A stretch of 64,000 nucleotides of DNA from the sequence record ON871820. The stretch is one strand, 5' to 3'. The notes below the pieces were generated by a model. That model saw only the letters and a program-made list of their open reading frames with translations. It had not been told where the DNA came from and made no database searches. Shown here piece by piece: positions 34,582 to 35,447 of the stretch. The translations under genes were made by a program, and so were the position numbers. Positions within the stretch are counted from its first letter, which is position 1, and each line of letters starts with the position of its first letter. The DNA comes from Escherichia phage vB_Eco-B1.1.

Positions 34582-35121
34582 ATGAGAACATTTTTAACTG
34601 GTCCTTATCTATCCCTGATGAATGCTTTTACACACCATTCTGATGCTAGAGTAGAAGAAATTTGTAAAAACGAATATATCCCGCCATTTGAAGACTTACT
34701 TAAACAGTATTGCACACTTCGACTAGACGGTGGACGTCAATCTGGTAAATCAATTGCTGTGACTAACTTTGCTGCTAATTGGTTGTATGATGGCGGAACA
34801 GTTATTGTTCTTTCTAATACTTCAGCTTACGCTAAAATTTCTGCAAATAACATTAAAAAGGAATTTTCGCGTTATTCTAATGATGATATACGTTTTCGTT
34901 TATTTACTGATTCTGTACGCAGTTTTATTGGTAATAAAGGAAGCAAGTTCAGAGGTTTATCGCTTTCGCGAATTTTGTATATAATTGATGAGCCTGTCAA
35001 ATCTCCTGATATGGATAAGATTTATAGTGTCCATATTGACACTGTACACTGCTGCTGTAATATTAAATGTTGTATTGGTGGTATTACTCGTCCACAGTTT
35101 TTCGTAATCGGAATGCAATGA
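34582..35121 (+). CDS. small P-loop NTPase-like protein with Cys-rich C-terminus
   Basis: 179 aa; Walker A GGRQSGKS and Walker B-like ILYIIDE; C-terminal CCCNIKCC. Confidence 0.55.
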   Translation: MRTFLTGPYLSLMNAFTHHSDARVEEICKNEYIPPFEDLLKQYCTLRLDGGRQSGKSIAVTNFAANWLYDGGTVIVLSNTSAYAKISANNIKKEFSRYSNDDIRFRLFTDSVRSFIGNKGSKFRGLSLSRILYIIDEPVKSPDMDKIYSVHIDTVHCCCNIKCCIGGITRPQFFVIGMQ

Positions 35122-35447
35122 TGACAGACACTCAGCTTTTCGAATATCTTTATTTTTCGCCAAAAACTATTAAAAATAAATTGGTGAATCATTTTGAAAT
35201 TTTGGCAAATAACAACGTCTTGAGCGAATTTTATCCTAAGCAATACAAATTACAAAAAGGCGTATTCAAAGGATGTAGAGTTTTATGTACTGCTCCTAAT
35301 GCACGGCTAATGAATAAAATTCCATATTTTACCATGGAATTTATTGATGGGCCTTTTAAAGGACTAATCACACAGAGTTTAATGGCATATGATTCTGAGC
35401 CATTTTTAATTAAAGAACAATCTTGGATAAATTTATTTTCTAATTGA
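35118..35447 (+). CDS. hypothetical protein
   Basis: ATG at 35118 overlapping the upstream stop (ATGA); 109 aa. Confidence 0.5.

Follow-up and report, generated by a model that had tools for sequence, protein, structure and literature searches.

A terminase-like ATPase module and a probable structured RNA at the vs.8 locus of a T4-like phage

T4 is a reference phage, yet its early-expressed genes vs.8 and vs.7 lack an assigned function. What do these genes encode? The question was addressed in Escherichia phage vB_Eco-B1.1, using a 64,000-nucleotide stretch of sequence record ON871820 (hereafter the window). Here, the initial annotation had marked an open reading frame (ORF) of 179 aa as a small P-loop nucleoside triphosphatase (NTPase) with a Cys-rich tail and a coupled downstream partner, without recognising a known T4 enzyme. 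The last remark was correct in substance: by position and sequence the ORF is T4 vs.8 (T4p119), annotated as a hypothetical protein, and the gene that follows is vs.7. We find that Vs.8 is a terminase-like ATPase module and not a terminase. With a probability of roughly 0.6, it is a free-standing P-loop ATPase domain of minimal size, of the ASCE terminase/helicase (RecA1) kind and similar to that of the T4 large terminase (TerL) gp17. The most interesting item at the locus is an unannotated, probably genuine structured RNA that lies hidden inside the T4 annotation of vs.8.

The window is that of a Tequatrovirus, and its + strand corresponds to the early strand of T4. Across bases 34400-35900, identity to Escherichia phage vB_EcoM_G8 is 99.1%, and 886 phage records are matched. 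For T4, early RNA and early detected protein are recorded for both vs.8 and vs.7 (PMC9697503 supplement), and both proteins are therefore produced. The GenBank labels of vs.8/vs.7 homologues are inconsistent, ranging from 'endoribonuclease' or 'RegB' (apparently spillover from the adjacent regB) to 'terminase large subunit', 'terminase-6 domain-containing protein' and 'DNA packaging protein'.

The ATPase core of Vs.8

The P-loop assignment was right. Both motifs on which it was based, GGRQSGKS (residues 50-57) and ILYIIDE (131-137), were confirmed in position, and they do not represent a chance resemblance: in 19 homologues of at least 40% identity, D49, G50-K56, A59, R113, R124, G125, I134, I135, E137, P138 and a C-terminal F..G.Q are all invariant. 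Judged from sequence, Vs.8 was thus shown to keep all the residues for ATP binding and hydrolysis, namely Lys56, Arg52, Asp136, Glu137 and the invariant Arg124-Gly125, whose position is that of the RG conserved in terminases. The Walker A form of terminases (G/S-R-Q/G-x-G-K-T/S, with a P-loop Arg) is present, as is their Walker B form (hhhhD with an adjacent catalytic Glu). A tblastn search located vs.8 in 1009 phage records, T4-like among the matches listed. An exhaustive hidden Markov model (HMM) search of 1.84 billion cluster representatives returned only 50 proteins at E ≤0.001, the longest of at most 259 aa; we conclude that this is a small family confined to phages, whose members are always stand-alone proteins.

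An AlphaFold2 model of Vs.8 (predicted local distance difference test, pLDDT, 82; predicted template modelling score, pTM, 0.83) consists of a single domain that combines a helical hairpin at the N-terminus with a parallel sheet of five strands. Strand β1 (residues 45-49) leads into the P-loop, and Walker B lies on the strand formed by residues 131-135. The sole disordered stretch comprises residues 160-168, within the Cys cluster region, with pLDDT <50. A sequence search of solved structures gave no significant match, the best reaching E 0.07 (an FtsK-like coupling protein and the signal recognition particle receptor).

When a wide family profile was compared with T4 gp17 using hhalign, a match of 90.3% probability (E 1.5e-6) was obtained over 112 columns, covering gp17 142-263. 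The Walker motifs fall in register with the catalytic positions of gp17: GGRQSGKS aligns with LSRQLGKT (160-167), R124-G125 with R245-G246, ILYIIDE with MIYIDE (251-256) and Y32 with Y142. We can therefore sharpen the P-loop NTPase assignment to that of a gp17-like mini-ATPase. PHROG 2 (large terminase) was matched by 18 of 31 family members (best E 3.9e-8), and Pfam Terminase_6N by 16 of the 31, all under the gathering threshold (best member E 1.4e-4). In gp17, the residues so aligned are those of Walker A, Glu256 as the catalytic residue, and the Tyr of the YQ motif that binds adenine (Rao laboratory; Sun et al. 2007). The RG preceding Walker B probably matches the trans-acting arginine finger reported for P74-26 TerL (Hilbert et al. 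2015).

The N-terminal ATPase subdomain I of gp17 (Terminase_6N; PDB 2o0h) thus has in common with Vs.8 a P-loop Arg, the RG before Walker B, hhYIxDE with a catalytic Glu, and an aromatic residue at Y142. In contrast to the 610-aa gp17, the 179-aa Vs.8 lacks the lid subdomain II and the coupling (C) motif, TTT in gp17: the protein ends at residue 179 directly after strand 5, and the gp17 match stops at 263. The C-terminal RNase H-like nuclease domain is also missing, and all 50 family representatives are of 259 aa or less. Vs.8 further differs in lacking the Gln of the adenine YQ motif, in being expressed early and not late, and in having a conserved N-terminal helix (YLxLMxAF) of its own. The RecA1 domain of SF2/SF1 (superfamily 2 and 1) helicases, such as DEAD-box proteins, Mfd and T4 Dda, shares with Vs.8 the strand order, the placement of motifs I and II, and a C-terminal strand ending in G-x-Q at the motif III position. 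However, Vs.8 is a single-domain fold that lacks a second RecA domain, the Q motif and motifs Ia, Ib and IV-VI, and thus does not display the two-RecA, motif I-VI arrangement of a helicase. Sequence similarity to these enzymes is limited to the P-loop, the hhalign match to Dda reaching 45% over 51 columns around that motif only. Features of the kinase-GTPase class (its strand order, no Glu after Walker B, a lid/substrate domain) were not found, and no P-loop kinase appeared among the top 60 in the comparison of fold and lineage. In a Foldseek search of viral models, many large and jumbo phages proved to encode look-alikes 140-175 aa long (BFVD 201phi2-1 B3FJV4, PhiPA3 F8SJJ9; PHROG 2586), with the same single-domain fold at E 1e-5 to 1e-3. 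PHROG 2586 was also matched by 28 of the 31 Vs.8-family members. At 11-24% identity to Vs.8, these proteins add breadth and no mechanism.

We infer that Vs.8 most probably diverged long ago from the gp17 N-terminal ATPase subdomain. Such a protein would bind and hydrolyse ATP only as a homo-oligomer with an arginine (R124 or R113) provided in trans, or together with a partner, and would serve as an early non-structural accessory protein. The vs.8 and vs.7 genes are co-transcribed and translationally abutted in Tevenvirinae, and the small, putatively SH3-like Vs.7 may be an adaptor.

A number of observations weigh against this interpretation. Vs.8 itself scores 12.7 bits with Terminase_6N (E 0.1), missing the curated cutoff of 22, and a search of NCBIfam yielded nothing. 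The hhalign comparison with an unrelated TerL (contig L018) aligned the P-loop only, at 7% probability. Because the chain stops just behind strand 5, it has neither the coupling motif nor the lid, and Vs.8 alone may therefore turn over ATP poorly; oligomerisation, the arginine finger in trans and the partnership with Vs.7 are themselves putative. In the distant family members P0056, P0058, P0060 and P0065 (alignment A4), the Walker A Lys is replaced by His (G-H-[ST]) and the Walker B DE is lost. Catalysis is therefore not universal across the wider family, and these four are, by their motifs, probably non-catalytic relatives. Finally, a literature search with vs.8, its accessions and UniProt ids found no paper treating vs.8 or vs.7.

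The RNA element upstream of vs.8

The T4 annotation of vs.8 comprises 219 aa (NP_049732; NC_000866 64253..64912; minus strand of contig L001, 6254-6913) and appears to be over-extended by 40 codons, the conserved start being the Met of MRTFLTG, which gives 179 aa. Compared with T4, the corresponding upstream stretch of the window carries a 9-nt deletion and a TAT to TAG change, and what is left of the extension is a spurious ORF (Table 1). An in-frame stop occurs 1-5 codons before the conserved Met in 16 of 27 distinct T4-like loci, and the lengths of the indels found here are not multiples of 3. On account of these stops and non-triplet indels, we rejected the idea that the stretch encodes a leader peptide or an N-terminal extension.

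Despite this, the stretch containing the RNA is far more conserved than the vs.8 gene. Its 32-nt core, ACCTGTAATAAGGTCGAGCCCAAGTGCGGTAA, occurs once within the window and is identical at 32/32 positions in Dhaka- and Jiaodavirus, where vs.8 DNA is 58-61% identical. A covariance model was built from eight sequences, the consensus structure being derived from a homogeneous subgroup first. It matched all T4-like loci tested (78-181 bits). Outside the T4-likes, matches of 25-49 bits were obtained in rV5-like Vequintavirus phages, in a 44-kb siphophage and in several contigs from IMG/VR and metagenomes. In the alignment, itself fitted to the model, pairing extends to 93.8% of cells, compared with 80.2% for shuffles, none of 500 attaining the observed level, and 26-48% for slid controls; 19 of 32 pairs have changed on both sides, as against 9.3 in shuffles. 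Compensatory changes are found in helix P1 (GGGAA/UUCCC, GGGAG/CUCCC, AAAGG/CCUUU, AAAGC/GCUUU and GGGG/CCCC) as well as in P3 (CC-A-ACC/GGU-AA-U-GG and GG-U-ACC/GGU-AA-A-CC). G-U pairs are common on the + strand, and the structure is therefore specific to the transcribed strand. On this evidence the upstream element is quite probably a real structured RNA, and the chances that it represents a new class are about even.

Other identities for the stretch were considered. No relevant Rfam match was obtained at E ≤10 in the window or in contigs L022, L018 and L032; close by, tRNAs alone pass the gathering threshold. A tRNA was rejected using ARAGORN, and no site for a sigma-70 promoter or a terminator is present in 34417-34581. 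A host origin was also rejected: the element was not found in E. coli genomes, and a search for the core pattern in 185,579 bacterial and archaeal genomes returned one match, located on a metagenome-assembled genome (MAG) contig. A further match to the core pattern, in L036, was attributed to chance, as it lies inside GC-rich coding DNA and is without a covariance-model match. The single-sequence folding energy of the stretch (z 0.56) was uninformative.

Outside the T4-likes the element does not neighbour vs.8. It is found just upstream of or inside tRNA clusters, or after an endolysin gene and before the terminator. Four such elements (L028 2468-2559, L032 7825-7921, L040 1318-1409 and L044 1320-1439) lie on the same strand as nearby tRNA genes or within the cluster. 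The RNA is often contained within longer ORF-free stretches (~650 nt in L018), and may therefore be one domain of a larger RNA there. Some T4-likes have two copies, as seen in L016 (10293-10443 and 9891-9986) and L015 (5186-5307 and 5046-5172). In L016 the copies lie on either side of an internal-protein gene inserted just before vs.8, an arrangement suggesting that the element marks a recombination or cassette boundary. Two GGA motifs occur in 34537-34562 of the window, AUGGA and the hairpin loop (C/A)GGAA (AAGGAAU), with CAGGAUG and CAAGGAUG in Serratia phage X20; by our reading, the motifs resemble CsrA sites.

A functional link between the RNA and Vs.8/Vs.7 is doubtful. One can conceive of a three-part module, in which an RNA class common to rV5-like phages, siphophages and gut-metagenome phages (beside tRNA genes) is joined to a gp17-derived, DEAD-box-like RecA1 mini-ATPase, Vs.8, and to an SH3/KOW-like Vs.7. 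The proteins would act on the RNA, be controlled by it or form a ribonucleoprotein with it, and we regard this arrangement as equally doubtful. An obligate linkage of the RNA, or of vs.7, to vs.8 is weakened by distant Straboviridae that carry vs.8 alone, and in which the RNA element was not found. A comparable layout is known from phi29, where a structured packaging RNA (pRNA) of ~120-170 nt is encoded beside gp16, a small ASCE ATPase of the packaging-motor lineage. This is offered as an analogy of layout only: the T4 RNA is found without vs.8 in other phages, and vs.8 is found without the RNA. T4 packaging is not known to need RNA.

Vs.7, gene order and rival explanations

The start of vs.7 inside the vs.8 stop, through an ATGA overlap (35118-35121), was as originally described. 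The further claim that the two genes are coupled partners is weak. Vs.7 occurs in 933 phage records compared with 1009 for Vs.8, and the two co-occur in most Tevenvirinae, but the 4-nt overlap is ordinary T4 gene packing, and in Yersinia phage MHG19 and in Gualtar-, Braga- and Muldoonvirus vs.8 is followed by unrelated small genes. Vs.7 is predicted to form an SH3-like barrel and not a RecA domain. The order of a vs.8-like gene, one small variable gene and a grcA-like gene is preserved in Gualtarvirus, Bragavirus and MHG19 (L053 1501-2681; L054 1492-2518; L003 3001-4141), the middle gene not being homologous between the three.

Two other explanations retain the relationship of Vs.8 to known ATPases. 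Vs.8 could be a non-enzymatic mimic of the TerL ATPase subdomain, acting either as a decoy for host factors or sensors that recognise terminase (Avs-type STAND NTPases) or as a regulator of the gp17 partners gp16/gp20. Avs1-3 reportedly sense TerL (Gao et al. 2022), and a decoy would fit with the fact that Vs.8 is closest to the phage's own gp17 and not to other terminases, with its loss of the lid and nuclease domains, with early expression, and with a position in the accessory block that holds vs.4 (Acb2). However, the idea rests wholly on inference, PADLOC returned only a negligible match to HerA (E 0.033), and the catalytic Glu and the RG are so strictly conserved as to suggest that chemistry, and not shape alone, is maintained; we consider a decoy unlikely. 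No more probable, in our view, is that Vs.8 and Vs.7 are remnants of an SF1B (Dda/RecD-like) or SF2 helicase that was split, and act on DNA or RNA, with Vs.8 as RecA 1A and Vs.7 as the SH3-like 2B domain. Pfam AAA_30 and AAA_19 are matched by 14 and 5 of the 31 members, respectively, and by our reading the C-terminal hhhhGxQ resembles SF1 motif III. Yet the pair has no second RecA domain, the Dda alignment (45%, 51 columns) falls well short of that with gp17 (90%, 112 columns), and GGRQSGK is the terminase form of Walker A as opposed to GxxGTGKT. In addition, Vs.7 scores higher with eukaryotic SH3 domains than with helicase inserts, and distant vs.8 loci lack Vs.7 altogether.

The remaining two ideas, a kinase and a metal protein, are largely excluded by computation. 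A small P-loop kinase (of a nucleotide, polynucleotide or metabolite) would be in keeping with the length of 179 aa, typical of such enzymes, with the several kinases that T4 encodes, and with a weak CobU match in 2 of the 31 members; nevertheless, hhhhDE with its catalytic Glu and the strand order are those of ASCE proteins and not of the kinase-GTPase class, and no lid or substrate-binding insert is present, making a kinase very improbable. It is just as improbable that metal binding (Zn or Fe-S) at the Cys cluster determines the function of Vs.8, for example through a redox link to the glycyl-radical protein Vs.6, although vB_Eco-B1.1 has five Cys in 8 residues and the order vs.8 - small gene - grcA-like is preserved even in distant Straboviridae. 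Gene order in T4-like cores is generally conserved, and the CCCxxxCC spacing is not known to fit any standard Zn or Fe-S motif. The protein does not end with CCCNIKCC, as had been stated: the cluster comprises residues 157-164, and the 15 residues that come after it form the last conserved β-strand (FFVIGMQ). The cluster is YCCNSKCC in T4 and HCCRASCEE in other Tequatro-/Mosigvirus-like phages, with 3-5 Cys in close relatives and 0-2 in more distant proteins, and it varies even at >90% protein identity. The conserved Cys ligands and ordered motif of a metal module are therefore not seen; this internal, lineage-specific sequence, in a loop of pLDDT <50, is a fast-evolving surface loop and no family feature. 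The Cys-rich tail is thus a distraction, and the gp17-like ATPase domain remains our preferred explanation for Vs.8.

The surrounding genes and what the locus may offer

The vs.8/vs.7 pair is located between internal-protein (ip) genes and a grcA-like gene, as the initial annotation had noted; the latter is vs.6, encoding a GrcA-like glycyl-radical protein (Pfam Gly_radical E 2.5e-18). Four genes downstream of vs.8 is a homologue of vs.4. Published work has identified Vs.4 as Acb2, an anti-CBASS nucleotide sponge, and vs.8/vs.7 therefore lie within a block that contains a proven anti-defence gene. While T4 itself has an intact denV (endonuclease V) immediately upstream of vs.8, the window retains a denV remnant between two internal-protein genes, corresponding to the last 42 residues (74% identity to T4 DenV 96-137). 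A short stretch resembling the denV 3' end (ATTTAC...TAA; 34420-34440) adjoins the RNA element. A set of 11 tRNA genes (Gln, Leu, Gly, Pro, Ser, Thr, Met, Tyr, Asn, His and Arg) lies ~7 kb upstream of the RNA element.

Table 1 Features at and around the vs.8 locus, with positions in the window.
Feature	Position	Strand	Remarks
tRNA genes (11)	26687-27701	+	
denV fragment	33381-33506		
ip gene, 192 aa	33838..34416		PHROG 5341; upstream of the vs.8/vs.7 pair
Possible closing stem of the RNA	34425-31/34523-29	+	
Probable structured RNA, conserved	34445..34562	+	covariance-model match 34441-34569, 90 bits; directly upstream of vs.8
RNA helix P1	34445-49/34479-83	+	from the covariance model
RNA P2 hairpin	34459-64/34471-76	+	from the covariance model
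Spurious 33-codon ORF (MRDSRQPV...)	34471..34572	+	counterpart of the N-terminal extension of the 219-aa T4 annotation; closed by TAG 34570-34572
RNA helix P3	34485-90/34515-22	+	encloses the near-invariant core ACCUGUAAUAAGGUCGAGCCCAAGUGCGGUAA
RNA 3' hairpin	34550-53/34559-62	+	loop CGGAA
vs.8, 179 aa	34582..35121	+	
Walker A/P-loop GGRQSGKS, residues 50-57	34729..34752	+	D49-K56 invariant; P-loop Arg as in gp17 SRQLGKT
R124-G125, candidate arginine finger	34951..34956	+	invariant; precedes Walker B, as does the aligned gp17 pair; putative finger role
Walker B and catalytic Glu ILYIIDEP, residues 131-138	34972..34995	+	ILYIIDE 34972-34992; on a β-strand; aligned to gp17 MIYIDE
Cys cluster CCCNIKCC, residues 157-164	35050..35073	+	variable, poorly ordered loop
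vs.7, 109 aa	35118..35447	+	optional two-helix N-terminus and conserved, putatively SH3-like barrel of ~55 aa
vs.6	35455..35817		downstream of the vs.8/vs.7 pair
vs.4 homologue, 88 aa	36031-36297		

If Vs.8 is indeed a free-standing copy of the ATPase subdomain of the packaging motor, with its catalytic residues in place, this would provide a concrete and cheaply testable hypothesis for a T4 protein; since mini-ATPases of this kind are widespread among large and jumbo phages, the result would also be relevant outside T4. In the T4 reference, vs.8 should be shortened from 219 to 179 aa, and the sequence so freed appears to encode a conserved, covarying RNA. According to a 2010 review, no riboswitch or trans-acting small RNA had been functionally characterised in T4 (PMC3014915). 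The element upstream of vs.8 is a specific candidate for a T4 regulatory or small RNA.
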